DNA of 64,000 nt. It comes from Psammoneis japonica (Eukaryota). Shown one piece after another: positions 2,440 to 40,502 of the stretch. Under the pieces are notes generated by a model that saw nothing but the letters and a program-made list of their open reading frames with translations, was not told the DNA's origin and ran no database searches. Location of the stretch: the NCBI GenBank assembly GCA_008632985.1, contig QPGO01000011.1, positions 620,001-684,000 of the forward strand, given 5' to 3'. The position numbers and the translations under genes are program-made. Every line of letters starts with the position of its first letter. The stretch's first letter is position 1.

Positions 2440-5400
2440 ACCTGGTCCAGAGAAAAGTGCCAGCGCAATCTCCCCACCGGTAAATCTGACACTCATTTCC
2501 CACTAATCTTTGGTTTGTTGCACCCTGCAGGCTTCTGCTCTGCTGCATCATTGCCTCCCTTGCCTGAGCACTCCAAATTGTCAAAGTTTTCAACAAAGCA
2601 AATCCAACAGACTCTGCAAGACTGCAGTGGTGTGGTGCAGCTGGATGAAGAAGTGGAAATGGGGCACCTTCTGGGCACAAGAAGAGAAGCAGCTCTTTCT
2701 TGTCAGTGGAGATTCTTGACTCTCTCTTGGAGAATCTGCTCTCACACATCTGTCTTCCAATCAGGCCTGCAGAGTGGGACAAGGTCCAGGGTCCAGGAAT
2801 GGCACATGGCAAACTGGTCTGAGAAAGAGCATGACACATGACTTCATTGTGGCACAAGCTCAATTCTCTGGCCAGGCAAAAAGGATTGATGCACAATGGA
2901 CCCCATGCAATGATCTGATGCTGGAGAGGTGTTTTGGAGTCAGGTCTGGGAACAAATGAACATGACAAAGGGGAGGATGATGCTGTTGTGGAAGAAGCTG
3001 TGTGTGGCTGTCACTGCAGGTGGCACTGGCACATCAGAAACTCTGCTGGAGCCCACCAGCATGCTCACTCAGCTGCTTCAGCAAATCAATGCTGCTGTCA
3101 GCAAACCGATCCCCCTTCAGGCAAGCACCCCTGGATTTGACGCTGGGAGCAACATCCGCATGGAGCCCACCATGAGTTTGACAATTGCAAGCTCTCTTTT
3201 TTGCAGCAATGAACAGAAGTGTGGGAATGGCTTGGGTGAAGAGAGCACAAAAAGAGCAGCAGCAGCTGCAGCAGCAACAACAGCAACAAGTGATCATGCA
3301 GCAGCAGCAGCAGCAGCAGCAGCAAAGGATGAACGTCAAGATGGTGAATCTCGTTGGTGGTCATGGCACAAATGCTGACTCATCACTGGGACAACAATGT
3401 GGTTGCAACTCCAATGACAAACAATGCGGGTGAATGGGGTCAAAAAAGCCAGAGGACTTTGAAGTCATTGAGCAAACAGGACCGGGCTGTGTTGTGCTGT
3501 TGAGGCAGGCCAGATCAAAACTGGCAACAGTGGTGCCAATGAACAGGTTGTGCTGCACATCAAGGCCAGCAACTGTGATGATGCAAATGAACAACTTGTG
3601 CCACATCAAGGCTGCTGCATTGCATTGCACTGCACTGTGCTGAACTGCAAAGCCAGCAAGGACATTGTGAGTGAAAAGGTTGTGTTTCATCTGCCTGGCA
3701 ATGGCGATGCAAACAAACAGATTGAGCTGCACCACAGAGGCAAACAAGCATGCTGTGCAATCAGGATGCTGGCAATGACAACATGAGTGAACAGATTGCA
3801 CTTTGTCAAGGCCAGCTGCAATGATGTGAATGAATTGCAACAGTGGCACAAGTGCATGAATGGAGCTAAGACAGAGCGCCAAAGGCATTGCGGTCTGGCC
3901 ACTGTCAAACATGTGTCCATTGGCTTGCATTTTTCTCTCAAGGCATGACAGAAAAAGAGCCAAGTGAGTTTGGTTCAGCCCCACAGTTGATGCCCAAATG
4001 TTGCACAGCAGCACCACAAGAGTTGCAATGATCTTTTGCTCACCATGGTGTTCCTGACAAGCAGCACAATTTTCAACCAGGGAAGGACATTTGCAACCCA
4101 CACATGCCCCCCACTGTGACAATTGTTGAGCACTCACAGCCTCATGAAACATGTCGCCATGTTGACAGATGTTGCAGACTTGCCCACATTGCTCTGGCAC
4201 AATTTCTGGAGAGATGGTCGGTTTTCCTGAAAATGCCAAGTCAACAACAACAACACCTTTCATTGTGATGGCTCATGATTGACACACCCCATCAATTTTG
4301 CAGCAGATCCCACTGATCAAGGTGAGCTCAAAGTCATGCCATGCACACTCAGAAAGAATGCTTTTGCAACCTCCCCATCAGAAGAAAACAGAAACAAGCT
4401 GCTCACACAATCACCATGAGTCCATCCATTGAAAATCACATTTTCAATGTCTTTCTTTTGCTTCATGGAAGAATTCCAAGCTGTCCTGCCCACTGCCCTC
4501 CCCCAACACCTTGCAAGCTCAGGTGTTCTGCACATGTGGTGGCCAGGAAAATTGCTGCTTTGTTTTTCAGAAGGCATCCGCCACACTCAAGCAACTGGGC
4601 AGTCCACCAGCACTTTAAGCAACAACAATCCAATTGCCAAAGTGAAGCCAAGCTGAAAGCAGGTTGTGTGTCAATCTAAAAATGAGCTGAAGAGAGTGCC
4701 CGTGGATCCTCACATTCTTGCCCAAGCAAGAGACGGCCCCAAACACATTGCTGCTGACATTTTCCTGGGATGACCCTGTCATTTTGAAGAGCAACTGCGT
4801 GCAATTGTTCAATGGCAAGCATGCCTGATCCAGAGTGTTGCCATGGCTGCTGGTGTGTGAATGTCCTCAAACACACATGACCAAAGAACAAAGGCACCAA
4901 TTGGCAAAACAGCACATGGTCAAACACCCTCACAAAGTCACCATGCATCATTGTGCCCACTTTTGTGGAGGCACATGAGTGTCAAGAATTTAATGACTCA
5001 ACAAGTGTGCCACATCAAATCCTTGCCACTGCCAGGTGTTGTTGTCCAGCAAGTCGAGTGGACCACCTGGGTGACAACCTTGCTCTGATGATGGAGAGCT
5101 CCATCTTCTTGTGCAAGAAAAAGACAAAAGGATTTTTTTCTCTTCCCCTCAGTGTCAAAGAGGTGCATGAAAATGGTGGTTTGATTGACGACAGTGCTGC
5201 CTGCAACTCTGCACAACTGGTGCCCCAAAAAGTGTTGCCAACACATTTGAGGTGTGGAGTTTTGACATGCTCAAGCACCCAGCTCTGGGTGGGACCTCAC
5301 ATTGCCAAACTGTGATTTTAACAGTTTTTTTGTTCCATGCCACATGTTGCTCATGTGCATTTCCATGTGACTTTGATGGATTTTTGAGTCATTTTGTGGT

Positions 5401-6780
5401 GCGATTGTTGGGCAATCCACTCAACCACTTTTGAAATTTTTTCTTCAGTGCACCCCTTTGTTTTTGACATGATTTTGGTCCTCTTTTGGTTGTTTCAGAT
5501 TTTTCTAATTGATTTGATGAATTGTGAAAAAAAGCTCAAAAGGCTCATGCATGAAGTCTGAGCTCAGCCCACAAACAACGCGACAACGGTCAAATGTCGT
5601 TCGTTGAGCACAACAGAGGTGGGGTGGTGAGTGTCTTTTTTCACAATGTTGCTTGTGATGCAAAAGTTTGCTGTGTCACAAAGAAAGACACTTGTCACCC
5701 AGCTGCATTTTTGAGAACATGAACAACCATCATGGCAAGAAAGTTTGAGCACTGAGCGCAGAAGGTGCTGGGACATTTTTTTCTGGAGTGGCGCCACAAA
5801 TCATTGAAAGATTGGTTGTTTTTGATGCTTTTTGCAGGTGCATGTCCAAAAAACAAGGGATTTAGCACCCTTGAATGTCTTGAGAATGGTGTGGGGCAAG
5901 CGGATCTTTTGCAAAGTTTGAGCATGAATGCCAGCGCAAATGTGCCCCAACAAACTTGGTTGTTCAGCTGCAAACATTGAAGACAAAAGTGTCCATTGGC
6001 AAGAGCATGCACTGCAGAGCTCACATGTGGAATCCCCCCAGGGGGGGGATCACACAGAGTCCCATCCAGCACTGGAGAGCTGGTCTCTTGAGACATGAAA
6101 TGTTTTGAAGTGTGTGCAATGCAAGGTGCCCCGTTGTTGTCTGCGAGAATCTTTGTGGCAGCCCATCTCATTTGTGTTGCAGTTGAAGAACAAACAAAAG
6201 GAAAAATGGTTTGCACCCATTTTTTGCAACCACATAAAACTTGAAAAGCTTGTGTTTTCTCGGGGGTCACGTGGCGAGGACAGACACGTGAGTGTGTTTC
6301 TTGGGGCCTGCACACCTGCGTTTGTGACCATGGCTTTGTGATTTTGGGGTGCACCCAATGAGTTCAAAAATGCACCTTTGTGCACACCACAGCAGTCTTC
6401 AGGATGGAGATTGGCTGATGATCCAGCGGCAGCAGCAGAGCAGTTCATGGCGCTTTTTCAAATGTTGCATGGTGCGCAGGAGTGTAATTTACAGGTGCTG
6501 CAGTCTGTCTGCCTGGTGCATCCAACGGTGAAATGGCGAGAGAATGTGATTGAAATTTGTCTTCAGATCTCAAGGATGTTCAACAAATGTCCATTGTTTG
6601 TGTTTTCTGGCCATTTGCCAGTTGCAAAGAAAAGGGTGGAGCTGGACATGTTCACTGTCGTTTACCAATCCACGATCTGGGCTTGATCTGGGAGTCGCCT
6701 CAAACATGTTGAAAGCACGGAGGTCATCATCTTGCGCGTGATGGCGCGTGTGTTGCAAGCGGCATGCGTCAGACAGTGAG
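2440..6780. other. TpA- and CpG-depleted repeat island A
   Basis: Essentially no TA dinucleotide by eye from ~2510 to ~4670 and very few to ~6780. TG/CA-rich; the ORF translations lack Tyr. Confidence 0.85.
2600..5000. mobile_element. Degenerate PIF/Harbinger-like DNA transposon remnant (DDE transposase on -, probable Myb/SANT-like partner on +)
   Basis: Minus-strand fragments NGWTHGDCVSSLFLFSSDG, VVVVDLAF, AVSAQQLSQWG and LVVLLCNIWASTVGLNQ resemble DDE_Tnp_4-type transposases. A convergent plus-strand fragment (LPIRPAEWDKV...SLWHKLNSL, Q/M-rich tail) resembles the partner ORF. Many stops and frameshifts; boundaries approximate. Confidence 0.5.
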
Positions 6781-6913
6781 CAGGTCCGTTACATTAATTT
6801 TATGCGTAAATACATAATATGATTACATTCTAAAATTTAGTATTGGCCTCAATCTTTAGCGCTTAAATAGATTTGTCATTAATACATGTGCATAGTCATT
6901 ATCCAACGGATGT

Positions 6914-7596
6914 CTCAAAAACGTTGAAAGTTAAATTTTTGAAAAGTAAAAGCGTTGAAAGCTATATCTTTCAACGGATTTTCGTTGAAAGTTAAATCGT
7001 TTAAAGTTAATATGTTGAAAGCTATAGCTTTCAACGGAATTCCGTTGAAAGTTAAAGAAACGTTGAAAGCTATCAAACCAACTGAACGGTATTTATCTTC
7101 CAACAGATTTCTGATATCCGTTGAGAGTTCAAGAACGTTAACACTGACGTCATCTACTGCACAGTACAGTACAATATCTACACGTCGCAAGCAAAGCGGC
7201 GAGCCAAATTCCAGCTGGCGTATGGCATACCGTGCGATTTTATCATACGGTATTGGTAGCAGACCGCCTCGAAGCAACGAAGCTAGCTTTTGATGCGGGC
7301 ATTGAAAGCCTCTTGACGAGACTGAGCCCGGCTCTTGAACTTTTGTAGCTCAGGTTAGTCATGGGGGTTTGGTGTCACCGTGCCGTGTATTCCAATCGAA
7401 ATACCGATTGGCAAAACGTTGAATGCTGGATAACTTTCAACAGATTTTCGTTGAAACTTAAAAACGTTGAAAGTTAATCCGTTGAAAGTTATATCTTTCA
7501 ACGGATTTCCGTTGAAAGATAAAACGTTGAAAGTGAAGACGTTTATATTTGAAATGTTATATATAATGTCTATCTGGTGCTTTCAACGTTTTTGAG
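6914..7596. mobile_element. Non-autonomous foldback/MITE-like element with 17-bp terminal inverted repeats and CGTTGAAAG sub-terminal repeats
   Basis: CTCAAAAACGTTGAAAG (6914-6930) and its reverse complement CTTTCAACGTTTTTGAG (7580-7596). Many CGTTGAAAG/CTTTCAACG copies at ~15-bp spacing near both ends. No clear TSD. Confidence 0.6.
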
Positions 7597-7700
7597 GCGA
7601 CTCCCTGATTTCATTTCATTCACCTGCACACAATTTTTCCTTTTGCGTGAGACGCGTTATTTATTATTTGCGTCCGAAAGACACCAAACTTTGCATAACG

Positions 7701-8036
7701 ATGAAGCCCTCCATTGCCATTTTTGCCATCCTCGCCCTCATCCTGGCTTCTGCCTCTGCTGAGCTTCGCGGTGTCTCCAAGCTTCGCGGTGTCTCTTCCG
7801 AGATGATTCAAGGTGCCCGCCAACTCCATTCGCCTAAGTCGCCCAAGAGCCCCAAGTCTCCAAAGAGCCCCAAGTCTCCAAAGAGCCCCAAGTCACCGAA
7901 GAGCCCCAAGTCGCCAAAGAGCCCCAAGTCGCCGAAGAGCCCCAAGTCGCCGAAGAGCCCCAAGTCGCCAAAGAGCCCCAAGTCGCCGAAGAGCCCCAAG
8001 TCGGGGTCGAAGGGCATGTCACACCCTAGTCCATAG
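7701..8036 (+). CDS. Small secreted SPK-repeat protein, silaffin-like
   Basis: Signal peptide MKPSIAIFAILALILASASA, two LRGVS motifs, an RQL (RXL) site, then 19 SPK repeats. Confidence 0.8.
   Translation: MKPSIAIFAILALILASASAELRGVSKLRGVSSEMIQGARQLHSPKSPKSPKSPKSPKSPKSPKSPKSPKSPKSPKSPKSPKSPKSPKSPKSPKSPKSPKSGSKGMSHPSP
7830..8000 (+). repeat. Coding tandem repeat, 19 x 9 bp with an 18-bp higher-order unit (TCNCCRAAGAGCCCCAAG)
   Basis: Directly visible; encodes (SPK)19. Confidence 0.95.
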
Positions 8037-10835: not shown

Positions 10836-11279
10836 ATGGATACTCCTTCTGATGACGATCTTTTCGTGGCGGCTCGGCTCACGGTCGTCTTTCTGCTGCT
10901 GTACTCCTTTACGTTTGTGAATGTATTGGTGACAAAGAAGCGCCTTTTGGGGCAAGCCCGCAAAGAAAACAAAACCTTCAACCGATACACATCGCCACAT
11001 ATGCATGCTGCCGACCGTCTCAATGGAAACTTTTTAGAATGGACTCCGATATTTCTTGGGTTAGTTTGGTCTCTGGCGGCAACGTCAAACCTATCGCCTA
11101 ACTGCGTTGCGGCCGCTTGGACCTACGTTGCGCTTCGAGCGTTGTACATTGTCTTGATTTTAAGATATGGCGTTTCATCGGATGGAATGAGCAAGGCACT
11201 GTGGGCATCCACTATGCCTGGCTATCTTTGTCTCATGTTCATGGCGTCACATGCAATTCGTAAGCTGCTGTTGGTGTGA
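10836..11279 (+). CDS. MAPEG family membrane protein
   Basis: 147 aa with ~4 hydrophobic helices; motifs ADRLNGNFLEW and YVALRALY. Confidence 0.8.
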   Translation: MDTPSDDDLFVAARLTVVFLLLYSFTFVNVLVTKKRLLGQARKENKTFNRYTSPHMHAADRLNGNFLEWTPIFLGLVWSLAATSNLSPNCVAAAWTYVALRALYIVLILRYGVSSDGMSKALWASTMPGYLCLMFMASHAIRKLLLV

Positions 11280-11369
11280 TAGGAACGATCGAGAATCGAG
11301 ACGATGATTTTGTTTTCGGCATAGGAAGCGTAGGAAATATTCCATCGTATGCGCATGATATTCCGCTTC

Positions 11370-12130
11370 AAGGATTCGGCAGATGGGTGAGACTAGCTGG
11401 ACTCCAAGAAAGCTTGCGGTTGGTACTGGGCTTTGGGGCAAGGATAGCGGAAGGATAGCTTTCAAGCCAGTCCATTGACTGGCTTACAATACACATTACA
11501 GATTTCCTGTCTACTATCAGCACGCAAGAACGCTACTCCTTTCTTCCATGCAACTCCTTCCTTCCATTCAATTCACGGGCACTTTTTGCCTGGGGATCGA
11601 GCTTTGTTGTTGGTGCTTTGCAACACTTCCTATGTCGCGGTTTCCAATCTGACAGTCTGCGGGATTCATGCGCCACCTTGGACCTGGTGCGCATTTCTTG
11701 AATTTTGGTTCCATTCGTGGCTCAATTTCGCTACAACTCAAGTACACATCACCTTAGACTACCTGTACATCATATGACGGTGCCGTCATCTTGTTTCCTA
11801 ATATTCTCAGAAACTTCTTGCAATAGTCCACGAACAACAAACCCACGGCCCATGTTCGTGTGTGATCTCGTGAATGTAGTTCTTATTGGCATCTCCCATC
11901 ATTTGGTGACGAAAGCGTTCGTCTCGATGAGCAGATCTGCTGCAGACGCGGGCAAGGACTTGCTGTGGATAAAGTCAAGACTTCGACCAGTTGATGGATC
12001 CACAGCTTACATGAGTGATTCGAAAACCACATTTGTTTTGCCACGGAAACTCATGTCTCGTGTTCTGCATGGAAGCTGCAGGATCTTGTTGTGAATGGAA
12101 AACAATGGCATCACTCAACTTGGACTCTGC
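11370..12130 (-). pseudogene. Decayed MYND-finger gene (paralogue of 30080-30730)
   Basis: Frameshifted fragments LSCSEIEPRMEPKFKKCA...DCQ...SDWKPRHRKCCKA; aligns by eye to 30080-30730. Confidence 0.55.
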
Positions 12131-13949: not shown

Positions 13950-15730
13950 TAGGACGACGGCCCTCCTCTCTGTCTGCAGATTGCTGCGATGCCAAGCGCA
14001 CCACCAAAGACACCATCAACACATCGGCCTCCACGACTGTCTCCCCGGGTCCCCTCAACACAACTGATGCTGCTGATGACCCCTCGCCCCTTTGCAACTT
14101 TTTTCCAGTGACTTTTTGCACACAACTTCAATCCCCCCCACCTGCAGAAACTCTCCTGGCGTCTGTGGATCCCACCACCTGAAGCAGCTTCCTTTGTGAC
14201 CTTGGCACTGTGCAACACCCTGTCCAACATGGCATTGCCACTTCCCGCACCTCTGCAGCCAATGCCCATTGGGACAAGTGGCGCCAGCCACTTCCGTGCC
14301 TCTTTGGCCCTCGACCCAAAAAATCCCGTCATCTTTCTCCAAGTGCTCTTGCATGGGCACCACACCCCACTGATGAAAGATGCTGCATGATTGCTGTTGA
14401 CTGGCCAAACATTGTGCGCAGCAGCGGGGTCCCCGGACCCGCACCACACACATCCCAAGGCCAAATGGACATTCCAACCCACCAAGTTCATTTTTACAAG
14501 AAAGAGAATCCACTGCCCAACCAAGAAAAACCGACCCCTGCCACATTTCTCTTTTGGGTCATGAGTGTTGCTGCCCACAGCATGAACCAGGGAACTCAAG
14601 CGGTTGCCAGCATGATCATCTTGGCCTTTTTCTTTTTGCTTTGCCCTGGCAAATGATGTGCTGCCCCACCCCATCTCCAATGTGTGACACCCTTCCAACT
14701 CAGGGACGTTTGTTTGACCATGGGTGGCTTTTGCCTTGGTGTGTCTGCCGTGCTGCCGACAAGCAACTCAGGGCAGCTGCCCTTGGCTTCCTCACTTTTG
14801 CCACCCAGAAGAACAGTGTTCATGGGGAAGTTGCAGGCCATGGCCACCCTCAGCTCTGTCTCCAACCCATGCCCCAGTGTGCCACATCGTCAAGCATCTC
14901 CGACTGCACGGCACTTTGCCCACACACCACTGGGTGCACATTTCCACAATGACATCTGGTGCCGGGGGGTTTCACCCACTGACATCACCAGTCTCCTTTG
15001 CAATGCAGTCATTGCCATTGGACCTCCCTCTGCTGACCTCGGTTTCACAACCTTGGGCATTTCTGCTCAGCGCATGTGTCCGGCTCTCAGGCCAGCGGCA
15101 ATCTGACAAAATGCTTCAGCACTTGCACCTTCAAGCTGAGCTCATTGTGCACAGTTTCACACATGACATCATGTTGTCTGGAGGCAACTTCATCTTGCAC
15201 CCTGCCAATGCCAAGGTTCCCATGGCTGCTCCTGTGGAGCCATTGACCACCAACACAGCCCACCAGCCGGGTCCCGCCCGCCCCCAAGCACTGCTTGCCT
15301 TGTAAAAACTGCTTGCACTTTGGGTGGTTCTGGATGGCCCAGCCATCCAGCTTGGGACTGGAAATGAGGCTTGCTCAGCCCCTCTGCAAAACCATCCCGC
15401 TCCAACCAAGACCTGCTCACAAAGTTCGATGAAGGTGAGGCGACCCTCCAACTGTCAGAGTCATTCCAACCCCCCGTCATGTCAAAACAATTTGAACATG
15501 CTTGTGCAAGGCTTTGAACAACAGCCTCACTGGTGCCTTTCTCTCATTCTTCCAAAGAGCATGGCATCAGCAACCAACCAGACAGTTTGGTCACTCCCAC
15601 CTCTCTTGCCCTCTGGCTGGCCTGGCTGTCAAGCGCAGGACTGGTGGGAATGAGGCTCACCCACCAGCAGCCGCTCAGTGAAACCATCCCACTCCAACCA
15701 AGACCTGCTCCAATCACCCCAGGAAATGCA
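13950..15730 (+). mobile_element. Degenerate tyrosine-recombinase (DIRS/Ngaro-like) element remnant; TpA-depleted island B
   Basis: MIILAFFFLLCPGK (cf. AFFFLLRPGEY), LTFATQKNSVHGEVAGHG and DKMLQHLHLQAE (cf. DxMLRYLH) are tyrosine-recombinase motifs. Frameshifted and nearly TA-free. Confidence 0.65.
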
Positions 15731-16100
15731 GGAGTGCGAACGAGAAGGGCGGCGAAAGCCGCTCCCTTCGGACGATTGCCCTCTACTTGCCGGCATCTAC
15801 CAGCAGCTGCTCTACCACTGCACTGTACACTGTACGGTGCTTAAAGTACTGTAGAGTGGCCAAACCTCCGAAGATATCTCGGAAGAGGGCCCTGCGCCAA
15901 AAACCCATAACGCACTGAAAGACAGACCGTTTCAGTAGAAATTCTACGCACCGGTACACAAGATCCAAGATCTTACTCTATTTGACATGGATGAATAAAT
16001 GAGTTCAAAGACGTCCCCCAGCAGGCAGATAGACCATATCATGAAAGAACGATACAAGTGTATGCCATATAAGGCCTAATAATATGAAAAAGATCTCTCT

Positions 16101-19772: not shown

Positions 19773-20979
19773 ACTTCATTGTTTGTTTACTTGGTCGCTT
19801 CTGCTGTCTATCGTTCTATGTTGCAAGCACCATAGCTGCATGCCTACACGCACAAAGCGAGCGCCACGTGCTGCACATCCAAGTTGCTTTTGTATATTTC
19901 AAAAAGAAGCAACAAACAGTCTCAAACTTCCATTGAGCGGTTCTTCACCAATGCTAGTAGCCGGGCATGTTTGTAGAAGATTGTGATGAAGCCTCAACTT
20001 CCAAATTCAGTTCAGAAAATTTGGATTTTCTGCACCCCACCAAAGACCCCACATCTGAGATCGTCCATTGGACTTTCAACCGAAGGCCCCTCCCATCCGC
20101 ACTTGTTGGATTCAAGTGCTGTTTTAGCTTGTCGGCATGTGCTGACAACTGGCAGAACACATGCATTCACTTTTTTTCATTCTGTTGCTTGTGTTCACAA
20201 TGCTCCTGACCGTGGCTGGGTTTTGCCCCATTGCAATCCATCCTGCCTTTTGGGACACCCCACTTTGCACTTGCCACAGGGCTTGTCAAGACATTCTTGC
20301 TGANNNNNNNNNNGGGGGGGGGGGGGCAAGTTCATGACGGGCCTTGTTGGCAAAGAGCCAACTGCACTTCTTGTTGGCAATGTCAGCACGTCAGCACCAA
20401 TTTTTTCACTGGGTTGCAAAGCAATCCAAGCACATGTCTGGGGACATCCATGATTTGGGTCCTGTTCCTCAAAGCAGTTTTTGCCAATTTCAAAGTGGGT
20501 TTTTGTTGGTCTTGTTGATCACAACATTGCCCTGCTTTCTCAAATCTGGATGCAATGGCAATTGAAAGCTGAAATGTTCCAACTTGAAGATGTGATTTTC
20601 TGTCTCAACAGACAAGAGGGCTCTGTTGTTCACAATTTTTCATTCATTTCCATGTCAAATTCTTTGTGACAGCTGCTGAACATCTTGTGCAGCACTGCAT
20701 GTTGAGCACAAAGAATGATTCCAAAAAAAATTGTTGTCACTTCTTTCAATTTGCAGTTTGCCATTGACGCTCACAGCAAAACAACAAAATGCTGTTTCCA
20801 GGCACCATCCCACCCACTCTGTTTGTGCCATTTTACCAAGTTTGCCAACATGCCATTCTCTTGTCCTTTGTGTGGCTTTAAAAATGATCATGCTGTCTCA
20901 AGTCACATCAGTCATGGACACTGCTTGGCTTCACAGATGCAGTTGGCCATGAGAACAAAGCCTTGTCACTGTCCTGTTT

Positions 20980-21255
20980 TGACAGAAATTGAAGGCAAAT
21001 GGCAAGAATTCAAACAATGACTCCTTGCTGCTTTTTAAACAGCAGATGAGTCTCCGCTCAGAGACCGTTGCAGGAGCCGAAAGACGTGTAAGTCGGCATG
21101 ATCGGGCTACTGTCATCATTCTTGTGAGCCTTGTGGCTCGAAAGCAAACTACATCGCGCGCGAACGCGCGGAACCAAAGCACACAAAACTGTGTGCGGCA
21201 AACTAAACAGCGCGCGATACTTCGCGCGCATCCAAATCCTGTTCAAATCCTGTCA
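20980..21255 (-). repeat. 3' LTR of copia-1
   Basis: Direct repeat of 27803-28078 with 12 substitutions. Confidence 0.97.
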
Positions 21256-24200
21256 CTCCCCAGTTTGCTTGAGGAGCCACAGAAACAGATTCGACTTCGG
21301 ATGGGATGAAGTTCCAGAACATAAGAGGGCGGAGAAGGTCCCAGATTTGGGAGTGACCCCAATGCTTGCTGAGAATGTCAGCAGGATTGCGGGAGCCCTC
21401 GATGAAGTGGAACTCAAGGCAACCAGAGGCAATTGCCTCACGCACACGGTGGAACGATAGTGCGGTGTGTCGCTTGTGTAACTTGGAGTGCGGGATGGTG
21501 GCACTGTCTACAACCGACTTGTTGTCACCGAACATGTAACTAACATTACGGATCGGGACGCCAAGGCAGCGCAGGGTGATGCGCAGGTCGACAATCTGCT
21601 CGACACAATTCCTTGCGGCAACAAATTCAGATCCGTAGGTTGCAGTCTCCACGGTGGCTTGTTTCTTGGAGAACCAATCAGCCGGGAATTTGTTGAGGAA
21701 GTGGAGCATTCCCATGACAGAGCGTCCGGTGAGCATGCAATGGTGCAAGTTTGCATCGACGTAGTGGGTGGCAGTGACGAACTTGCCAAGGGGCGGTGGA
21801 GCGTCCTTCGGGATCATCTCTTCTGCTTCACCACACACGGAATGCATCCATTCATAGGCCGGAGCAGGGAGATCCGAACAGTCGGGCTCTTCCGTACGAA
21901 CGCGGAGAGCACCGTGTCGCATCTTGGAGAGGCACCCACAGACGCGTTTGGCACGATCCAAGTGGCCTTGACGGGGCGCAGCTCGGAAGCTAGAGAGTGA
22001 CATGACAGCCGTGGTAATGTCAATTCGACCAAGGGACACTGCCCATTGGAGTGAACCAACAAGAGACTGGAACTTGTGAATGCCATCGGGTCCCAGTAGT
22101 TCGGAAGTGTCCAGTTCAGGGTGGTCACCCTTCTCTAGAGGTGACAGGGCGTTGGTGGCAGGTTTCTCCCCAAACAATCGGGCGTAGCTGTCGACCATGC
22201 GCTCGATGTACTTGCGCGGAGACAGGCACAAGGTTCCGTCGGGGTCCCGGGAAAAGTCGCAACCCAGATGGAACTCAATGGGTCCCGCACCCTTGAGCTT
22301 GAACTTGCACTTTTCCGTGAGAGTATCGATGAAAGATTGAGGGTCCTTCATGGCAATGGCGAGGTCATCCACATAAACGCCAATGTATTCATAGTGGTCG
22401 CCGTTCCTGCGCATCCAAATGTCGGGTTCGGCGCGGCAGGGGAAGAAGCCTTCAGCTCGCAGGCAGTCGGCGAAGCGCTCGTGCCAGCGGAGACCGGAGC
22501 TGCGAAGTCCATACAGTGCCTTGTGGATGACAAGGATGTGTCCCTCGAGTTTGCCAAATTCGGGTCCAGCTACAATGTAAAGCTTCTCCTTGGTGGTGGC
22601 TTCAAGGCAGGCATTGCCAATGTCGGTGGCCCATGTCTCCAGCTCGTTGAGTTCGGCCAGGAAAATCATCAGCCGAAGGCCACGGAGGGAGACTGCTCCG
22701 GAGTAAACACTGTCGACAGGTACATCCGTGAGGTGCCCGTCGGCTACGAGTCGTGCCTTGTGGCGACCGTCGTGTTTCACGTCGAACACCAGGTGCACTC
22801 GGATCTTCTTGTGTCCCGCAGGAGGAGTGGAAGACTTGAAGGGCCCGCAGTCATGGAAGACTTCGTATTCGTCGAGTTGGTCCATCTCGAGATTAGTTGC
22901 GTCTCCCCACTTGCGGTTGCCGTTGCGTTCGTCTAGTGACATGGCGTGTTTGTAGTTCCGGGGAACTTTGTATCCGTACTTGTAGCGAGGTGCAGTGCGG
23001 AAGGAGCGAAGCTTGGCTTGGTTGGCCATGCGAAATAGCTTCTTTTGGCGCCTCGCGATAGTGCGGAACCGCTTCCAGCCATCCGTGTCGAGGAGTCCGT
23101 TCTCTCGTGCATAGATGGCACAGGTGACGGGGTCGTCCTTGGCGATGATGGCAAGAGGCTCGGACGTGATCTCCCCACTTTCCCATTCAAGCATGATGTT
23201 GTAGCTTGAGCCTTTCCAGGTTGGGTCGTGAGGCTTCAGAGGTCCTTCGTGTGATGCGATGCGTCGAAATTTCCAAATGGTGGTGTCTTCGTCTTCTTGC
23301 TCAATGTGATTCATGATGTCATTGCAAGCAAGGACTTCCTCGTATTCGTCATTGTTGACAGAGCAGACGAACTTAGTGAGCTCGGGATTGCCGTTCACTT
23401 TCCATTCGTGGTCTTCGACGGCCTTGACGATGCGAGCTCTGTGGCGTTGTCCATCCTCTTGTGGCTGCATGAGGAAGGTACGTCCAATGATGTCTTGCGG
23501 ATCGAAAACTGGCATCTTGGGTGTCCTGATCTCCCCATCAGTAGAATCGACGGGGTTGTCGTCATGGCGAGATTTGATGATGGGTTCAGGTGGCTCCCCA
23601 TCAGGAGGATCAAGACGCAGGTTTCGAACGGCAGGATCGGGGCAGCGGAGCGAACGTTGGACCGGGAGGATCTTTTGAGTCTCGTCAGATAGGATCTTGA
23701 AGGTCATCTGGTGGCCGACGTGCTCAGCAATGCCAACAAAGCGTCCACGCAACTCACGGGATTCGGACGGCCAATCGGAGTCATCGAGGTGGAAGTGCAC
23801 TGGTTCCCACCAGTGAAAGCGAAGCAATGGGCTGATGTCCGGGGTGGATCCAGTGAGAGTCTCGAGGGGCGTGCGCCAGTGGAGACGTGGGGACGCTGTG
23901 TGGTTGAGCATGAAGCACACGCACATGAGCGCCAGGAGCCATGTGTGGGCGGGCGAACCAAAACGGTCCATGACAGTGTTCGCCATGCGCTTCACGGTCT
24001 GGTGTCGACGTTCGGCAAAGTTTTGGTGTTGCTGGTGAGGCTCACTTTGCCAGCTGGAGATGAAGAGGGCGCGCAGGATCCCGAGCACTTTGTTGCTGAT
24101 CTCAACTTGAGCACGGTCGCTAATGAGTTTGGATGGTGCACCACGTTCACGGATCTGATCCTCGAGTGTGTTGACAAACTCTTTGTCCGTCTTAGTGCCG

Positions 24201-26876
24201 TAGACGTCAGTGACGGTAGACTCGGTGCCAACAAACAGTTGGGCGCTGGTGCAACCAGAGTCGACGGCCGGGGTGTCGGCAAAACGGTGTCAGTGGCGAC
24301 AGGCTCGTTGCGGCGGTGCACATTAAGGGCGGGGTTGGGTGATTTGTAGGCCTTGCGAAGGTGTGCACCGGCGGGCATGCGGGCGTACTGCGTGGTGCAG
24401 TCAAAAGTACGACGGACCGCATCGGCAGGTAGGAAGCCAAAGCAAGGCCGAAGAGACTCGAAGGGGGGGTCCTTGGGCTTCACAGTGCGCTCCGGAGGTG
24501 GAACGTCAACGCCCGTGGGGTCACTCGCATGCAGATGACACTCGTAGAACACGTCGTCGTTCGGAATGAGGTGATCATCGAGGGCGGACGCGTGATCGTC
24601 AGACAAGGAAGCGGACAAGATGGTCTCGTTGACAACGACACGGTGACGGCAGTTGCCGCATTCGTCAAATGGGTTGGCAGTGGGATCGTCCTGCAGGTCA
24701 GAGATCGCGTCGCACCACTGGTCGTCGTCAGTGACAGAGTGATCGAGGACGGAAGGGTCCCATGTGTCATCACCGGTGAGGATGACATGGGGCAGGGTGT
24801 CCCATTCGGCGTCAGTGCAAGGGCGCATGGCAACATAAGGCAGGCCAGCCTTGATGTCAATGGGGATGACATGGCCATCAGGAGTGGCAATACGTTGCAA
24901 GCCGTTGGGCACCTTGACAGAGCGATCGTTGACATCCTGTTTGCACCATTCGAGCTGGCCGCAGGAATGGATGGTCTTGCCCTTTCCCGTGCATGCGCTG
25001 ATGGAGGATGGCGATGACGGGACCACGCTGGGTCTCAATGACGGCACCAGCGGTGACAATGGGGATGTCCACCAATTGATGATCGTCAATGCCCTGAACG
25101 TCGACTTGGCGAGAGGTGCGTGCGATGACGCGAACGTCGTCGCCAGCAATGCCGCCGTTGGCCCCACGATCGACTAGAGCGCCAGTGCGTGTGGAGCGAT
25201 GAGCAGAGGCAGAGTAAATGACATTGTGGTTGTCAACGCGGCGGCAAGTGCGGCCGTTAAGTTCCATGTTATCTGCAGAAGCTGGCGGGGTAGAGGAAGC
25301 GGCGGATGGCCCGGTCGACTGGCATTGGGGGCTTGGTTAGGAGACAACAGACGTTGCAGATCACCGGGTGGCAGTGGCTTGCGCTTGGTGAGGTGCGCCA
25401 GGATGGGATCATCCGAAGTGGCGTCCACATGTGCAGCGGAGTCACCACAGTCAGCAGGAGTCGTGTTGGACAAGTTGACATCACCGTCACTCCCAAGGTG
25501 TTGGTCGTGAAGGTTGGCCGTAACAGACTCATGGCAGTTGCTGGCTCGCGGGTTGCGGGGAGGCGGGCGAGAGTGCTCAAGGATGATCGCCTTGGAGGAA
25601 TCGGGCAACGAATCCCAGAGCCGTTGGTGGTCGGGAGGGAGACGTCTCCATTGGACACCGGTGAGGCTGGGACCACGGGTGTGGGCAGCATTGGCTTGAA
25701 GGACGTCAACGTCACTGTCAATGTCGTAGAACACATCGTCGGACGGTTCCTCGGAGCAGACGTCGTGGGCGTGTGTGGCGCGTCGGGGAGCTCGAGGTGT
25801 CGTCTTGGGTTGAAACGTGCTGTCGCACTGAGCTGCCGCGGAGAGGAGCAAGCCACAGCATTGATCGCATGTGAGGCTCTTGCCACTCTGCGTACGATGC
25901 TGATCAGCTTGGTTCTTGACAGCACGGAGTTCCTCGACAGGGTGCACGGCATTCTCGAGCATGACGCGCTTCTGTCCTTCAGAGAAGTGGTCGCTGGCGG
26001 GGATGAGTGCCTCGCACTTGCGCAACTGATCTTGCCAATGAAGGATGAACCCGTGGGTCGGACCGTTCCAAGTGCCATCACCAAGACGTGCGGTGGTGAG
26101 GTACGTGAGCAGGGTGGAGGACTCGATGGATGCACGGGTGGAGGCAAGCGCGCATTCAGACAAGGAGCGGCAGACGGTCTGTGCGTCAGAGGACCCCACA
26201 TTTTCGCGAATGAGAGCCTTGCCCTTGTCGGTGAGAAGGATGCGTTCGAAGACGGCGAACATGTGCTTTTGCTGTTCAGCAAAGAGCAGTTTGTCTTCGG
26301 GGCTGGTCGGTTTGTACGACGAGTCTAGAATGCACTCGACGTCTTGGGCACGGGCTTGTGCCACAAGTGAGGTGTGCCAAGTGTGCCACTGCTTGTCGGA
26401 TTTGAGAGCCGTGAAAGCGGTGGGATCACGCTTGATGCCTCGCTTGAAGTCTCGCACCGGGTCGCGTGCCTTGGTCGGGTTGGTGACATGTGGAGGTGCA
26501 AGGGGTGAGCTGCCGATGGACACAGAGGACATGCAGTCCGGGCTGAGGCGGCAGGCAAGGAACTCGTCATGCGTGAACAAAGAGGAGTCGTTGGCAACGT
26601 CAAGACCTTTGTGTGCTTTGACAATGTACAGACTGGGCTGGTGCTGCCAACATGTTCTTATAACCACGAGGCAAAGGGATTGCATTGGTGCCGTTGTCGC
26701 ACACAAGCGAGTCGATTTGGGACGGCATGAACGTGAACAGTTCCTGATGCGAGTCCGTGCCGTCTTGGGCCAAAGCCAAACGAAGAGGACTCCCAGCACC
26801 TTGGGCAAGCACGGTTCCAACAACGTGCTCGAAACCATCGATTTGTTGCTGACGAGTGAGAACCATGGTAGACAAA
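21203..26876 (-). pseudogene. Copia-1 gag-pol polyprotein (frameshifted)
   Basis: gag (RDFKRGIKRDP...), protease ALVDRGANGG, integrase SEPHQQHQNFAERR, RT KALYGLRSSG and YIGVYVDD, RNase H YVDA...GDNKSVV...NPADILSKHW. Confidence 0.9.
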
Positions 26877-27802
26877 AGTGGTGTCAGGACAATCAATTCT
26901 GATTGGGAAGCGAAGGTAGACTTGAAACTCGGGTGAGAACAGACTTGACTTGAAATGGACTTGACTTGAAATCTTGAACTATCTTAAAATCAGAAGTCGC
27001 CGGGCTTTGCTATCCCGTTCGTTGTTGAGTGCTAAACTTCCCATCCGGTCCGTAGAGTTGTGCCGGCACGTCCGAACCCGCAGCCAGTGGCGCTTTGGGT
27101 TGCTTGCGAGCGGAGCAGCGGGTTGTAAACCCCTGCAGGCAAGCTGACCAGAGGTGGACAAGACCCCCGAACCGTTCTTATTTTATGTCGGTTGGATTTC
27201 CCGATCAGGCTGGCCAGTTGACGCAGGCGTTGGGCGCTGTGGACGAACGAACAAACGCGGGAAAAACACCCTCGCCCCAACGCAGGCTGCAATCACGGCT
27301 GCTTGCTCTCACAGTCGTCCTCGTGGACCTAGCAGAACTGTAGAGCACCAGCAGTCCGGGGTAGATCAGGTACAATGGACTCGGTGTGCTTGTAGAGTGG
27401 CAGCAAAACCGCATCCGAAGAGTGGGTACAAGTTCTTGGCCGTGAAGATATGCATATATGTATGTCTTCAGCGACGAAGGTCCTTGAATGTGTAGGGTTC
27501 TTGACCGTTAACCGATGAATGGGTATATCAAGGGATGAGGATCAAGGATAGACTTGGATATGACCGTTGAATGTATGTCTTCAGCGATCAAAGGTAGTAT
27601 AATCAATCCAGATATTCAGCGGTAAGGAGACTTGACGGTGACGTTAAATTCCTGCCGATGCCTGGTATTGAACGCGCGTAGACTTGCCGATGTATGTAGA
27701 ATATATACGGAGGTCCACGCAGAATTGAAATAGCGTCGTCGGTAAATCAACGACGACGATGGCGGTTGCTCAATGGGTTGACAATGAGCAAGACTGTTAA
27801 TC

Positions 27803-28078
27803 TGACAGAAATTGAAGGCAAATGGCAAGAATTCAAACAATAACTCCTTACTGCTGTCTAAATAGCAGATGAGTCTCCGCTCAGAGACCGTTACAGGAGC
27901 CGAAAGACGTGTAAGTCGGTATAATCGGGCTACTGTTATTATTCTTGTGAGCCTTGTGGCTCGAAAGCAAACTACATCGCGCGCGAACGCGCGGAACTAA
28001 AGCACACAAAACTGTGTGCGGTAAACTAAACAGCGCGCGATACTTCGCGCGCATCCAAATCCTGTTCAAATCCTGTCA
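27803..28078 (-). repeat. 5' LTR of copia-1
   Basis: Direct repeat of 20980-21255; retains 16 TpA sites. Confidence 0.97.
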
Positions 28079-28199
28079 TGTTTGCCACAAGGGTGGGCTG
28101 GGCTTTGATTTGGAAGATTCTGCATTTGCTCATCTTTCTTGGCATTGCAATGGAGGTGGCTCTGATGAAACATGACACACTCATCCAAAGCAATGAGAA

Positions 28200-29000
28200 A
28201 GAGCATCCAACAGCCCATGAGGGCTTTGCAGTCAATGGGAAACAGCTCAAAGGTTGATCCCTTGGTCAGTTGGTCAGCAAGTTGACCAGCAGAGCTGATT
28301 GGCTTGATCTTGTTGTCCAAATGTTCCACTTTCAAGCAATGACAGTGACATGGAATGCCAACATGCTTGGTCCTGGGGGTGAGCTTTGGCATGTGTGCAA
28401 GCTGGAGGCAGGCAGCAATGTCTTTGTGCACAACTGAGGGAGGCAAGCTGGTTGAGACAATGAGAGACTTGTCAGTGCCTGCACTGGTGAGAGCAAAGGC
28501 CATGGAATGTGTTGCACAGGTGGCATTTTGGGTGGGCTGCACATGAGCATGCACATCAATTCTTTTTTCAAAATTTCATGAGCTGGGGTGAGATTTTGCA
28601 TGCCTTGGGAGAGTGCGGCAATTGCAGAGAGCATTGCAAGGGTCCACAGCTTGGACAACCAAAGAATTGGATGCCTGCTTTGGCAAATGACACAGCCGGT
28701 GCAAGACTTGACACTTGTGAGATCTTGTCCATTTTTCAACACCAAAAAGTCCTGCAAAGTCTGCGCCCACATGATGATCAACTTGCTGCTCCTCAGTTGG
28801 CTCTCCAAAATCAGCCCCTTGTCTGCAGCATCCTTGTGGCAATGCAGGACTTGCTTGGTGGCAGCAGTGCAGGATGCCCTTGGATGATTGCAAGAAAAAT
28901 GAGCAACTTGATGGGACGTGCAGGCGACATCTGGGCAACTGTTACAGCCAGATGCAAAATTGGCAATTGACCTGTGATTGCAGCAGACTGCCCGTGCAAA
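28200..29000 (-). mobile_element. Older copia RT/RNase H remnant adjoining the copia-1 insertion
   Basis: PDVACTSHQVAHFS, GADFAGLFG, PKLTPRTKHVGIPCH and QLADQLTKG; heavily degenerate. Confidence 0.75.
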
Positions 29001-29094
29001 AGAATGCAGCCACTGCAGCAGCCACTGCAGCAGCAATCAATGTCAAGGTGTGATTGCTGGAAAACACATGTGACAGTGTCAAAGCAGTGTGGAC

Positions 29095-29320
29095 CTTGTC
29101 AGCAGGAAAACCAAACACCAAAGCAGGTCCACTGACAGCAAATGTGGTGATGGAGTTGGGTTCTTTTTGATTGAACCAGCCTGTCATGGAAGAAGCACAA
29201 CAAAAAACAGCATCCAGTTTTTTTGTGAGACAGAAAGCATCAAAAACATGTGGGGAGGGCAGTTGATGCTCAAGTGTGTCAATTGTTGCAGAGACAAAAC
29301 ATTTTGGTTGCCTCATGTCC
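29095..29320 (+). repeat. TpA/CpG-depleted copy of a dispersed sequence also present at ~42225-42340 and ~43640-43735
   Basis: AGCAGGAAAACC...GGAGTTGGG...GATTGAACCAG...AAGCACAACAAAAAA is shared with 42.2 kb; TTTTGTGAGACAGAAAGCATCAAAAA...GACAAAACATTTTGGT is shared with 43.65 kb. Confidence 0.75.
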
Positions 29321-30079
29321 CAAGTCTCAGCACAGTTTCCCAACCAGCTTGCATGTCAGCTTCCATGGGTGCAACCACCACACAAGGAACACAATGGCAG
29401 CACTCATGTTTTGGCACATGTTGCAATGAATGAAGCTGGAGCTTGGGGCACAGCACTCCTGTTCTCCCCAGAGTGCTGACATGTGCTCTCTGCTTCCTTT
29501 TCTTTTGGCAAGACCCTGTCAAAAACCAGGTTGATGTCCCACTTGAGAAGAGAGTGCAAAAAAAACCACACCAACTCATTAAAGTCCTGCAGTGAAAGAG
29601 CAAATTCTCAGCACAGAGTTGCTCGTGGTGCTGAATGGTGGTGCAAACAAACACAAGCATGCCACCAGTGTCCAAATGAGCTGGGGTTTGCTGGTTTCTG
29701 AGGTCAGTGAAGAACAAGAACCTCACTTTTTTGTCTCATTCTCCAGCAAGCTGCTGCTTTGGCAGCCCTTTGACTCCCATTCTGAGTGGCGAGTCTTGCC
29801 AGTGCATCCATGTGTCACATTGCATGTGATGAGAACAGCATGGTGAATGCTGTCACTGCAATGATGGCTGCAACAGAAAAATTGAGATGACTTTCAACTC
29901 AAATTCTGCTTGGTGCACAGCCTGTCCATTGAACTTGAAATGAAGAAAGGTCCATGGTGTCACACATGATTTGGGCACTGTTGTTGGTGTTTCAGGAGTG
30001 ATCAAGAGTCAAGATGTTGTTTTTGTTTTCAGCACAGGAAGAGGAGGAGATGCTCCATTGCACACACATGGCACCCCAC

Positions 30080-30730
30080 TTCAAGGAATGGACAGATGGG
30101 CAAGACTGACTGGACTCCAAGAAAAGCTTGCAGCTGATGCTGGGCTTTAAAACGAGGGTGGCTTGCTGTTCTCAGTGCTCAAAACAGATTTCCAGTCTGC
30201 TGCAATGTCAGCAAGCAAGAGTGCTGCTCTTTTCTTTCACACAATTCATGGACACTTTTTGCCTGAGGATTGAGCTTTGATGTTGGTGCTTTGCAACACT
30301 TTTTCCAGTCTGGGGAGCAACGGTGTGCCACCATGGTGCATTTCTTGAACCCAGGTCCCGTGCATGGCTCAATTTTGCTGCAACTCAAGCACACGTCACA
30401 TTGGACTGCCTGCCCATCACCATGTGACAGTTCTCTCATTTTTTCCCCAACATTCTCAGAATCTTCATGAAGAACAGACCTGTGGCCCATTTTTGCACAT
30501 GTCTCATGAGTGCAGTCTCAGCAACATTTCCCACCAGTTGACAGAAGTGTTCATCTCAATGAGCCAGGTCTGCTGCAGAGGCAACTTTGACCAGTTGATG
30601 GATCTGACATGAGTGACTCAAGAACTGTGTTTGTTTTGCCACAGAAAACTCATGTCTTGTGTTCTGTGTAGAAGCTGCCAGATCTTCTTGTGAGTGGCAA
30701 ATGATGGCATTGCTCAACTTGGACTCTGCT
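30080..30730 (-). pseudogene. TpA-depleted paralogue of the MYND pseudogene at 11370-12130
   Basis: Colinear blocks, e.g. CTGGACTCCAAGAAA, GTTGGTGCTTTGCAACACTT, GACCAGTTGATGGATC and CTCAACTTGGACTCTGC. Confidence 0.75.
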
Positions 30731-33230: not shown

Positions 33231-33701
33231 AGTCAAAGCTCGCATGTCCACGCAGCTCCGACTGCCTTCCTAACGTGTCGACTGGATGTCCACTCCAGAT
33301 CGATGCCTCAGGCAGAATGCAAGCAGACAGAATGCACCAACGAGCAGCAACGAGCATTTGGTCTTTCACAAAAGTGCCAGTGACCAAATTGCAAGCTGCC
33401 TAGACTGAATCTGCTGAATGCACCCAAACAGAGGTTGATCCGCAGGTTTGCACCAGAGACCAGTGCAAACTTCAGGGTTGGCCACATTCACAACAATCAT
33501 CCAAATGCTGCTGAACCAATCTGTGGTTGGTCCAACATCTGTGCAACACCTGTGATCTCCAAAGCACCGCCCATGATCCCCAAAGCATTCGGCTTGAGAA
33601 TCGAGTCGACGTGGCGCGAAAAGAATTTCAACAAGAATTCCGACTGACAGAAGCACAGACACAACAGAGAATCTGGGTCGGTGGACAGATGAACCATGAC
33701 T
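33231..33701 (-). repeat. 3' LTR of copia-2
   Basis: Direct repeat of 40503-40973; differences are mostly TG/CA and CG/TG swaps. Confidence 0.93.
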
Positions 33702-39700: not shown

Positions 39701-40502
39701 CGAACTTGGTTGAAAGTCTGGCAACGCAGCAGGCCTTGCTCTTCTGGGCGGAAGAAACGTGGTGGGAGCGATGCTGATTCGGAGACGTTGGACTGGAGTT
39801 GGGAGTTTCTAGCCTGGACCAATCAGCCTTGGGTTTCCCACCAGTCCAAGCAACTTTCTCAGTGGAGCCAATGGAGACAACCCCCCCCCATCTTGGGAGC
39901 CTTGGGTTTGTAGACCTTTGTCTTCGGAATCGCCACGGCTGCCACAGCAGCCATGGCCTGAAGAGTGCGACGTTCGTCGTCCGTCACACCAGAGCTTGCG
40001 GCGGGCTCGTCATCATCCGAGTCGTCATCCGAATCGTCTGGGCGATGTTCCAAGGGCGGAACAGGCTTGTTGTCTGGGTCATTGGGGTCCTGAGGTGGTG
40101 GATTATCCTCCGGTGGAGGTTGATCCTCAGGAGGCTGGTCCTCAAACACTTCGGGGTCGTCAGCCATGTCCGACAGCGCGCTTGAAGCTGTCAAGTTGGG
40201 CCAGTCATCTGGGATGTTCTCAATCAAGGAGCACGAGCTCGGAGAACTCTCTTGGGTCTCAGGAGGGCCACGGGGTGGAGCAGGGCCTGAGATGGTGCAC
40301 GCGCAAAATCAACAACAAACCTTCTGGTGGAACCAGCCATCCAGCTGACAGAGTCAGGCGCAGCACTTGATGTCAAGAGCATGGAGCGCAGCCAGTGAGG
40401 AGCGCTGACAGCATCAGAGCCATAGATGGGGTTGCTCTGGTTTGGGCGTCCCCAACCGGAAGTGTAGAACGTGTTAAGTTGCCCCAATTGGGCAAACCAA
40501 CC

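Follow-up and report, generated by a model that had tools for sequence, protein, structure and literature searches.

Islands nearly free of TpA in a diatom genome suggest targeted hypermutation of transposon-filled intergenic DNA

Why should a diatom chromosome carry kilobase-long stretches of DNA in which a single dinucleotide, TpA (hereafter TA), is almost missing and reappears abruptly at their edges? This question is raised by a stretch of 64,000 bp from Psammoneis japonica (assembly GCA_008632985.1, contig QPGO01000011.1, positions 620,001 to 684,000 of the forward strand), hereafter the window, within which all coordinates below are given. A preliminary description, made from the letters alone, proposed that TA deserts with sharp borders partition the window, that they span unrelated classes of elements on both strands, and that the process responsible acts on domains of chromosomal DNA. 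Here we describe the islands and the evidence that this intergenic DNA, filled with transposons and junk, has very probably undergone a targeted, DNA-level hypermutation of TA to CA or TG, which is best described as a repeat-targeted hypermutation chemically opposite to repeat-induced point mutation (RIP) of fungi.

Across the window, TA occurs 1,401 times, at an observed/expected ratio (obs/exp) of 0.35, and the corresponding ratios are 1.40 for CA, 1.38 for TG and 0.74 for CG. Segmentation with a three-state hidden Markov model (HMM) on P(A|T), i.e., the probability of A after T, an approach already suggested in the preliminary description, resolved five discrete TA-depleted islands that together cover 25,977 bp, or 40.6% of the window:

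2507–6789, unstranded: island A, a TA and CpG desert with 11 TA in 4,283 bp (11 TA per 1,076 T); decayed sequence without an assigned family.
13964–15782, unstranded: island B, 2 TA in 1,819 bp; CpG intermediate, + strand C-rich, no family found.
19981–20979, unstranded: island C, a TA and CpG desert whose HMM segment (19981–20833) has 1 TA; the left part of island D before an insertion.
28079–41808 (HMM segment 28044–41808), unstranded: island D, 42 TA in 13.8 kb.
54756–60012, unstranded: island E, 17 TA in 5,257 bp; CpG nearly absent in 56101–58718.

Only 73 TA remain in the five islands, where the density of the neighbouring sequence predicts about 1,060. Inside the islands, TA per T is about 0.01, compared with 0.16 in the seven normal segments, which include both genic and non-coding sequence, and CA and TG together are roughly twofold increased. 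For island A, the 11 observed TA compare with 175 expected from the density in normal segments and with 293 ± 12 in 500 mononucleotide shuffles (minimum 252), and 500-bp windows starting at 2501 to 6251 contain 0–3 TA each, with about 30 expected. The longest runs without TA measure 1,363 bp (2504–3867), 1,146, 993, 918 and 902 bp, and the Poisson log10 P for the TA deficit ranges from -13 to -180 over the five islands. Shuffles, Poisson statistics and the HMM agree on the near absence of TA from island A that had been noted initially; the TA deserts are real and far beyond chance. Furthermore, the distribution of TA is bimodal rather than continuous, with 0–1 TA in 91 of the 256 bins of 250 bp and a second, broad mode at 4–11.

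The borders of the islands are sharp to 20 bp or less. Around position 6789, TA is found at offsets -304, -299 and -126 and then at +1, +6, +12, +18, +22 and onward, i.e., TA, present once in the last 126 bp, becomes as frequent as one per 5–6 bp. At 15783, a stretch of 400 bp without any TA is followed by TA at +1, +15 and +30, and at 13957 the final TA (at -7) precedes more than 400 bp of TA-free sequence. Two of the three abrupt edges that had been reported, those at about 6790 and 15780, thus correspond to switches of TA at 6789 and 15783. The third, reported at about 41980, is an edge of CpG (at 41981), whereas TA itself switches at 41808–41812. The non-coding sequence directly adjoining the islands has a TA obs/exp of 0.8–1.1, and the neighbouring long open reading frames (ORFs) lie 8–790 bp away. 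On the + strand, CA and TG are present in nearly equal numbers (498/500 in island A, 579/549 in the left part of island D and 573/577 in island E), so the two strands are affected equally, in keeping with the original suspicion that both are involved.

The nature of the process can be read from sequences that are present in the window in two copies, namely the long terminal repeats (LTRs) of two retrotransposons and a pair of paralogous segments:

20980–28078, − strand: copia-1, with LTRs at 20980–21255 and 27803–28078 (276 bp) and RVT_2 (E = 1.7e-27); partly converted.
33230–40974, − strand: copia-2, with LTRs at 33230–33702 and 40502–40974 (473 bp), RVT_2 (E = 3e-19), zf-CCHC (gag zinc knuckle) and gag_pre-integrs remnants; fully TA-converted.
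11237–12130, + strand: unconverted host segment in normal sequence downstream of a MAPEG ORF; paralog of 29950–30729.
29950–30729, + strand: fully converted copy of 11237–12130 in island D; not a retroelement.

With the RVT_2 domain, gag/integrase remnants and LTR pairs, the two elements fit the Ty1/copia group. A target duplication was found for copia-1 only; these 5 bp (TGTTT) at both ends indicate that copia-1 was inserted into a pre-existing island, and when islands C and D are rejoined without it, they form a single tract of 14,724 bp with 45 TA.

The two LTRs of copia-1 differ by 10 dinucleotide events, and in each of these TA in the LTR at 27803 faces CA (6 events) or TG (4 events) in the LTR at 20980. 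In other words, 10 of 16 TA are converted in one LTR and 0 of 16 in the other; there are 2 other differences, and both LTRs contain 21 CG. In copia-2, the LTRs show 14 double swaps of CA for TG, 8 cases of CG facing CA or TG, 1 CG/TA, 1 TA/TG and 4 other differences in 473 bp, such that 39 of the 43 differing bases (91%) fall within pyrimidine-purine dinucleotide events. A double swap is explained by the independent conversion of one ancestral TA in each LTR; by this count, each copia-2 LTR would have started with about 28 TA, nearly all of which were apparently converted in both copies. Given a background change of about 0.4% per copia-2 LTR, the conversion would proceed at very roughly 500 times the background rate, an estimate that comes from small counts. 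The paralogous segments tell the same story for DNA that is not a retroelement. Sites that read TA in the normal segment read CA or TG in its island counterpart, and CG is likewise matched by TG or CA (9 CA/TA, 14 TA/TG, 17 CG/TG, 16 CA/CG and 15 CA/TG events), with 31 TA and 41 CG in the normal copy vs 2 and 4 in the island copy. Thus, LTRs that were identical when integrated now differ almost exclusively at former TA and CG sites, and a non-retroelement segment is fully converted: the conversion follows insertion and acts on DNA, which bears out the proposal that chromosomal DNA, rather than a retroelement RNA or cDNA, is the substrate.

A corollary concerns the age of the insertions. The raw LTR identity is 95.7% for copia-1 and 91% for copia-2, but after removal of the hypermutation events the divergence of the two elements is similar (2/276 and 4/473). 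Because most of the LTR differences result from hypermutation, LTR identity is not a reliable basis for dating insertions here.

The difference between the copia-1 LTRs is, by itself, not polarisable, and this leaves room for the opposite scenario, in which either the TA-rich flanks were mutated by classical RIP-type C-to-T changes and the TA-poor state is ancestral, or the islands are intrinsically TA-free or foreign. The conserved tyrosines provide the polarity. In the alignment columns where Tyr is present in at least 70% of 120 copia homologs, copia-1 keeps Tyr at 20 of 44 positions (the remainder being 15 Cys, 3 His, 4 Phe, 1 Trp and 1 Arg) and copia-2 at 0 of 12. By the same comparison, copia-1 keeps 95–98% of the conserved Arg, Leu, His, Trp, Gly, Pro and Ser. 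The copia-1 polyprotein contains 2.04% Tyr; the homologs, whose median is 4.23% and none of which falls below 3.32%, are not Tyr-poor. Since Tyr is encoded by TAY and is replaced by Cys (TGY) or His (CAY), the direction of change is from TA to TG or CA. The RIP indices are inverted as well (see below). Many diatoms do possess DNMT4, a protein of unknown function related to fungal RID (PMC9998398), but an enzyme acting on cytosine would leave the A:T to G:C changes unexplained, and DNMT4 is no more than a lead. Taken together, these data make a C-to-T origin of the flanks, or an intrinsic lack of TA in the islands, barely conceivable.

The same signature is found beyond the window. A scan of metagenomes with the copia-1 protein yielded 49 loci, all of which show at most 70% DNA identity to the window and hence represent other copia lineages and supply no outgroup for copia-1. 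Three of these loci, L014, L034 and L036, are TA-poor (TA obs/exp 0.31, 0.27 and 0.13, respectively; CpG 0.74–0.80). They keep conserved Tyr at 13/28, 1/19 and 2/18 positions, with Tyr to Cys and Tyr to His counts of 8:6, 7:9 and 8:6, and retain 81–89% of the other conserved residues. Each of the remaining 46 loci has at most two replacements of Tyr by Cys or His.

When the replacements in four converted copies were pooled and compared with those in 46 control loci, all enriched replacements could be traced to TA, including TA that spans codon boundaries: T precedes 8 of the 9 codons with Thr to Ala and all 7 codons with Arg to Gly replacements, and Leu to Pro (CCA), Val to Ala (GCA) and Ile to Met are enriched as well. 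Replacement of Lys by Arg, which requires AA to AG, is not enriched (3.9% in converted copies vs 7.2% in controls), and AA is not depleted in the islands (obs/exp 1.25). The conversion is strictly TA-specific and changes A:T to G:C on either strand. The few TA that survive reveal a preference for flanking bases: comparing islands with normal sequence, ATAT occurs 0 vs 202 times, ATAC/GTAT 1 vs 164 times and TTAA 26 vs 100 times, so that conversion favours ATA/TAT most and TTAA least. In line with the loss of TA, the stops in the islands comprise 103 TAA and TAG vs 1,228 TGA. In the somatic hypermutation of immunoglobulin genes, polymerase eta mutates WA motifs and produces A to G changes at 5'-TA, sometimes biased to the non-transcribed strand. 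However, the WA motif includes AA, which is spared here along with the Lys codons, and a saturation of about 95% far exceeds an error signature of a polymerase; the intact AA therefore disfavours a signature of this type. GC-biased gene conversion and ultraviolet damage were considered too and rejected by inference: the former does not fit an effect restricted to TpA with CpG shifting in the other direction, and the latter fits neither the missing dipyrimidine signature nor borders that are precise to a base pair.

Copia-1 is a mosaic with respect to this conversion. TA per T is 0.059 in 20834–26975 and 0.232, i.e., unconverted, in 26980–28041, and the CpG of the element is intact. Within the coding part, conserved Tyr columns are converted at 2 of 15 positions in 22186–23203 vs 16 of 23 elsewhere (Fisher p = 9e-4).

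A second component, which the preliminary description did not include, is the depletion of CpG in most islands, to a varying degree. CpG is nearly absent in 2486–5576 of island A (with partial loss up to 6655), in 20136–21054 and in 28052–31708 of island D, and is mildly reduced or partly kept in 31709–40470; in the oldest parts of the islands, CG per C is 0.02–0.03. The paralog pair contains 33 events of CG to TG or CA, and the copia-2 LTRs contain 8. Copia-1, L014, L034 and L036 have lost TA and retained CpG, copia-2 combines complete loss of TA with partial loss of CpG, and both are gone from the oldest parts of the islands. The existence of TA-poor copies that retain CpG implies that TA loss precedes CpG loss. 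The CpG component presumably reflects ordinary decay of CpG to TpG and CpA by deamination of 5-methylcytosine. Such decay, as described in vertebrates, plants and methylated transposable elements of diatoms, leaves the same CG to TG or CA changes as those found in these islands, but it accounts for the CpG part alone, and the loss of TA is both faster and earlier.

Could modified bases at TpA and CpG of silenced DNA have been miscalled as TG and CA during sequencing or assembly? Some long-read base callers do make A-to-G and C-to-T miscalls at methylated motifs, and the platforms of the assembly and of the sequencing run used here, X1, are not on record. In contrast to what an artefact predicts, however, de Bruijn contigs built from the raw reads of X1 (about 57x, single paths of 1.2 and 3.6 kb with no alternative bubbles) cover island A, bridge both of its borders and reproduce the TA-free sequence, which rules out polishing as the cause and shows that these borders are not polishing boundaries, a possibility that the preliminary description had raised. 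Strand-specific miscalls at a palindrome would have created CA/TG bubbles at every site, the signature recurs at three loci from other public metagenome records, and the read contigs hold more conversions than the assembly. We therefore regard an artefact of this kind as very improbable.

The X1 contigs differ from the window by 14 listed single-base differences, 4 of which are CG vs TG or CA and 4 of which are TA sites in the left flank of island A:

2060, 2315, 2327 and 2334, unstranded: island A left-flank variants, TA in the window and CA or TG in the X1 contigs; these are all 4 differences in the flank 2000–2504.

These differences show that the conversion is polymorphic at the edge of the island. 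At site 2060, TAC (Tyr) of the MYND-finger ORF (1118–2305) is changed to CAC (His) in the X1 contigs, so a neighbouring host gene may occasionally be hit, judging from this one codon. The X1 contigs also include a form that lacks 594 bp (5403–5996), and there are 35 extra bases at 6662–6664, suggesting structural polymorphism or haplotype differences in island A.

These polymorphisms in a gene flank and a codon, together with the fact that even the normal segments have a TA obs/exp of 0.61, could be taken to mean that an untargeted, genome-wide bias removes TA everywhere and that the islands have simply reached neutral equilibrium, with selection keeping TA in functional sequence. Yet the non-coding DNA that abuts the islands is TA-dense and the switch takes place within a few base pairs. 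At about 500 times the background rate, TA at weakly selected synonymous and intergenic sites could not persist, but normal sequence maintains its 0.16 TA per T, and the LTRs of copia-1, identical on insertion, differ in their fate (10/16 vs 0/16 converted). A genome-wide bias thus appears highly improbable.

An explanation at the level of RNA, namely A-to-I editing of retroelement transcripts by an ADAR- or ADAT-like enzyme, fixed via reverse transcription, has several points in common with the data. RNA adenosine deaminases typically prefer a 5' U, the A-to-G direction with a 5' U/T neighbour observed here resembles their activity, and the partly converted copia copies show an excess of A to G changes on the sense strand (15:3 in copia-1 and 18:7 in L014). 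More generally, both ADAR hyper-editing and APOBEC3/AID activity produce clustered transitions that inactivate retroelements. These systems, however, target RNA or pre-integration cDNA, in a strand-specific manner and in retroelements only. In the window, the LTRs have diverged at TA sites after integration instead of staying identical, the changes are not confined to the sense strand or to retroelements (the non-retroelement duplicate and a cyclin fragment in island E are converted too), saturated copies and entire islands are strand-symmetric, and whole inter-genic islands are covered. The post-integration divergence of the LTRs and the strand symmetry exclude RNA editing followed by retrotransposition, a route to which we assign a vanishingly small chance.

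Among the known systems, RIP of ascomycetes (RID/DIM-2) is the closest analogy. RIP, too, consists of dinucleotide-specific, DNA-level transitions in mobile or duplicated DNA; it affects kilobase tracts on both strands to saturation, has sharp limits with leakage into the flanks, and destroys coding capacity. In the broad sense of a RIP-like defence, i.e., dinucleotide transitions that strike mobile DNA after insertion and spare adjacent genes, the islands fit. The chemistry differs: RIP turns the C of CpA into T and thereby generates TpA and AT-rich DNA, whereas here TpA is destroyed by A:T to G:C changes, in a diatom host. Accordingly, the index TpA/ApT, which is high after RIP, is 0.056 in the islands vs 0.649 in the normal segments, whereas (CpA+TpG)/(ApC+GpT), which RIP lowers, is 1.82 vs 1.23. 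In the three pairs compared within this one window, there is no sign of homology dependence, under which both copies would be mutated. Moreover, the strand-coherent tracts of RIP are absent from the four converted copies examined here (runs tests not significant). No report of TA deserts or of A:T to G:C hypermutation in diatoms was found in the full-text literature searched, which excludes subscription journals and supplements; term look-ups in two papers on diatom transposable elements (PMC2806351 and bioRxiv 10.1101/2025.10.24.684338) likewise revealed no description of the signature.

We propose the following sequence of events. After insertion of an element, an A:T to G:C transition would take place at the palindromic TA step, starting on either strand, with ATA/TAT converted first and TTAA last, until saturation, when about 95% of the TA sites are gone. 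Conversion would halt within 20 bp or less of the island borders, with some leakage into the flanks, and would be followed in the same islands by slower decay of CpG to TpG and CpA; jointly, the two processes would drive all self-complementary pyrimidine-purine steps into CA/TG. As a result, the element would lose every Tyr codon (to Cys or His), the codons ATA, TTA, CTA and GTA, and signals of the TATA and AATAAA types, and no new in-frame stop codon would be created. The functional outcome would be RIP-like, i.e., irreversible mutational silencing of mobile DNA.

The dinucleotide specificity, the flanking preference and the saturation of about 95% suggest that this process is enzyme-driven. 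As for the effector, an enzyme that deaminates DNA adenine at 5'-TA offers the simplest route from A to G, and we tentatively favour it. The main alternative is a thymine modified or oxidised at TpA that mispairs with G, which seems rather unlikely; error-prone repair synthesis is less likely still, and an appreciable, if minor, chance has to be left for something else. The targeting is more likely to follow chromatin state, position or transcription than homology: an untouched copia-1 LTR and an unconverted paralog disfavour homology as the guide. Combining these strands, we put forward, as a speculative possibility, a diatom genome defence in which a natural 5'-TA-specific DNA adenine deaminase, or a thymine-modifying equivalent, erases TpA from transposons in silenced chromatin, an independently evolved mirror of RIP.

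Several considerations weigh against this picture. How the conversion works and what targets it are both inferred, and the evidence comes from one 64-kb window; the reads of X1 probably derive from the sample that was assembled and so do not amount to a biological replicate. The sense-strand preference of the partly converted copies (p = 0.0075 for copia-1) contrasts, without explanation, with the strand balance of the saturated ones (15:18 and 18:13), and the sparing of the 5' LTR of copia-1 along with about 800 bp of leader (26980–28041) has no explanation either. Borders of a few base pairs suit the boundaries of elements or insertions better than chromatin edges at the scale of nucleosomes; indeed, the border at 28078 is the edge of the copia-1 insertion, so part of the sharpness might stem from later insertions. 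Finally, the estimated rate depends on 4 background substitutions.

To our knowledge, mutational silencing of mobile DNA is understood in detail only for RIP in fungi and, before integration, for APOBEC/ADAR editing. If the hypermutation described here is real, it would represent a second, chemically opposite solution to silencing in an unrelated and ecologically dominant lineage, and would imply an undescribed DNA-modifying activity, possibly DNA adenine deamination, that would be a natural counterpart of the engineered adenine base editors and of direct interest for base editing. It would also have practical consequences. Old diatom transposons would be unrecognisable to protein searches, with Tyr and many Ile, Leu and Val codons rewritten in ORFs that are still long; LTR identity would be unusable for dating insertions in such genomes; and TA depletion would supply a statistic, computed from sequence only, for mapping silenced domains and for screening other genomes. 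Under the more specific hypothesis of a DNA deaminase defence, TA obs/exp would constitute a heritable fossil record of the DNA that a cell has ever silenced.

What else do the islands contain? Unrelated classes are indeed present among their content, in the form of the two copia elements, one duplicated host segment and a cyclin-like fragment, but the Harbinger-like transposon and the tyrosine-recombinase element of the preliminary description could not be substantiated, given that Pfam searches with the island ORFs (90 ORFs at E ≤ 0.01 and 52 ORFs at E ≤ 1) identified only one family, Cyclin_C:

54925–55578, − strand: cyclin C-terminal fragment in island E (Cyclin_C, E = 2.7e-5), with four relatives, all of PF02984.

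In this fragment, just two Tyr columns can be aligned, too few for a test; the window has Cys in each. The longest ORF of island A, searched with HMMER over all libraries, has a single weak relative (E = 7e-5), which itself belongs to no Pfam family; a motif of this relative does no more than resemble the C-terminal region of PIF/Harbinger transposases, and the Harbinger-like label stays unconfirmed. In the ESM Atlas, two island ORFs of 300 aa gave no usable match, and tblastn of the normal-region ORFs against the islands uncovered no additional pseudogenes. Self-comparison in purine/pyrimidine coding, which is blind to transitions, revealed no further hidden repeats except two at island B, of 43 bp (13889–13931/15429–15471) and 33 bp (15386–15418/15678–15710). 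These are direct repeats that become clear in this coding only, with one copy immediately beyond the left border of the island and the other inside it, near the right border; the inside copy shows CG to CA, CG to TG and TA to CA changes. Island C includes a scaffold gap, a run of 10 N at 20304–20313.

The normal segments carry host-type ORFs only (R3H, MYND, MAPEG, LRR, Ephrin-receptor-like, Myb, HDAC, EcKL and AAA_34); among these, the HDAC ORF (51483–52505) is 77–86% identical to diatom proteins. To the right of island A, an AT-rich stretch that begins exactly at the island border contains, at 6922–7076 and 7413–7543, arrays of CGTTGAAAG(T/C)TA-like motifs in direct and inverted orientation, which may represent a promoter array or else subterminal repeats belonging to a DNA transposon. 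The ORF that lies in the same flank (7596–8036, + strand) is not TA-depleted; it has a signal-peptide-like start and at least 10 tandem units of 18 bp (7797–8021) that encode (SPK)n. The HMM also assigned an intermediate state to 48756–51349, but the idea that this segment is a partly converted element was rejected, since it belongs to an ordinary low-complexity ORF (48171–51425, − strand, 1,084 aa, no Pfam family) with poly-Q, poly-P and Gly runs and a long charged, coiled-coil-like part; this ORF keeps many Tyr, so its low TA content is compositional. Elsewhere, a unit of 171 bp is tandemly duplicated at 44864–45205, with 88% identity between the copies, within the ORF 44667–45809.

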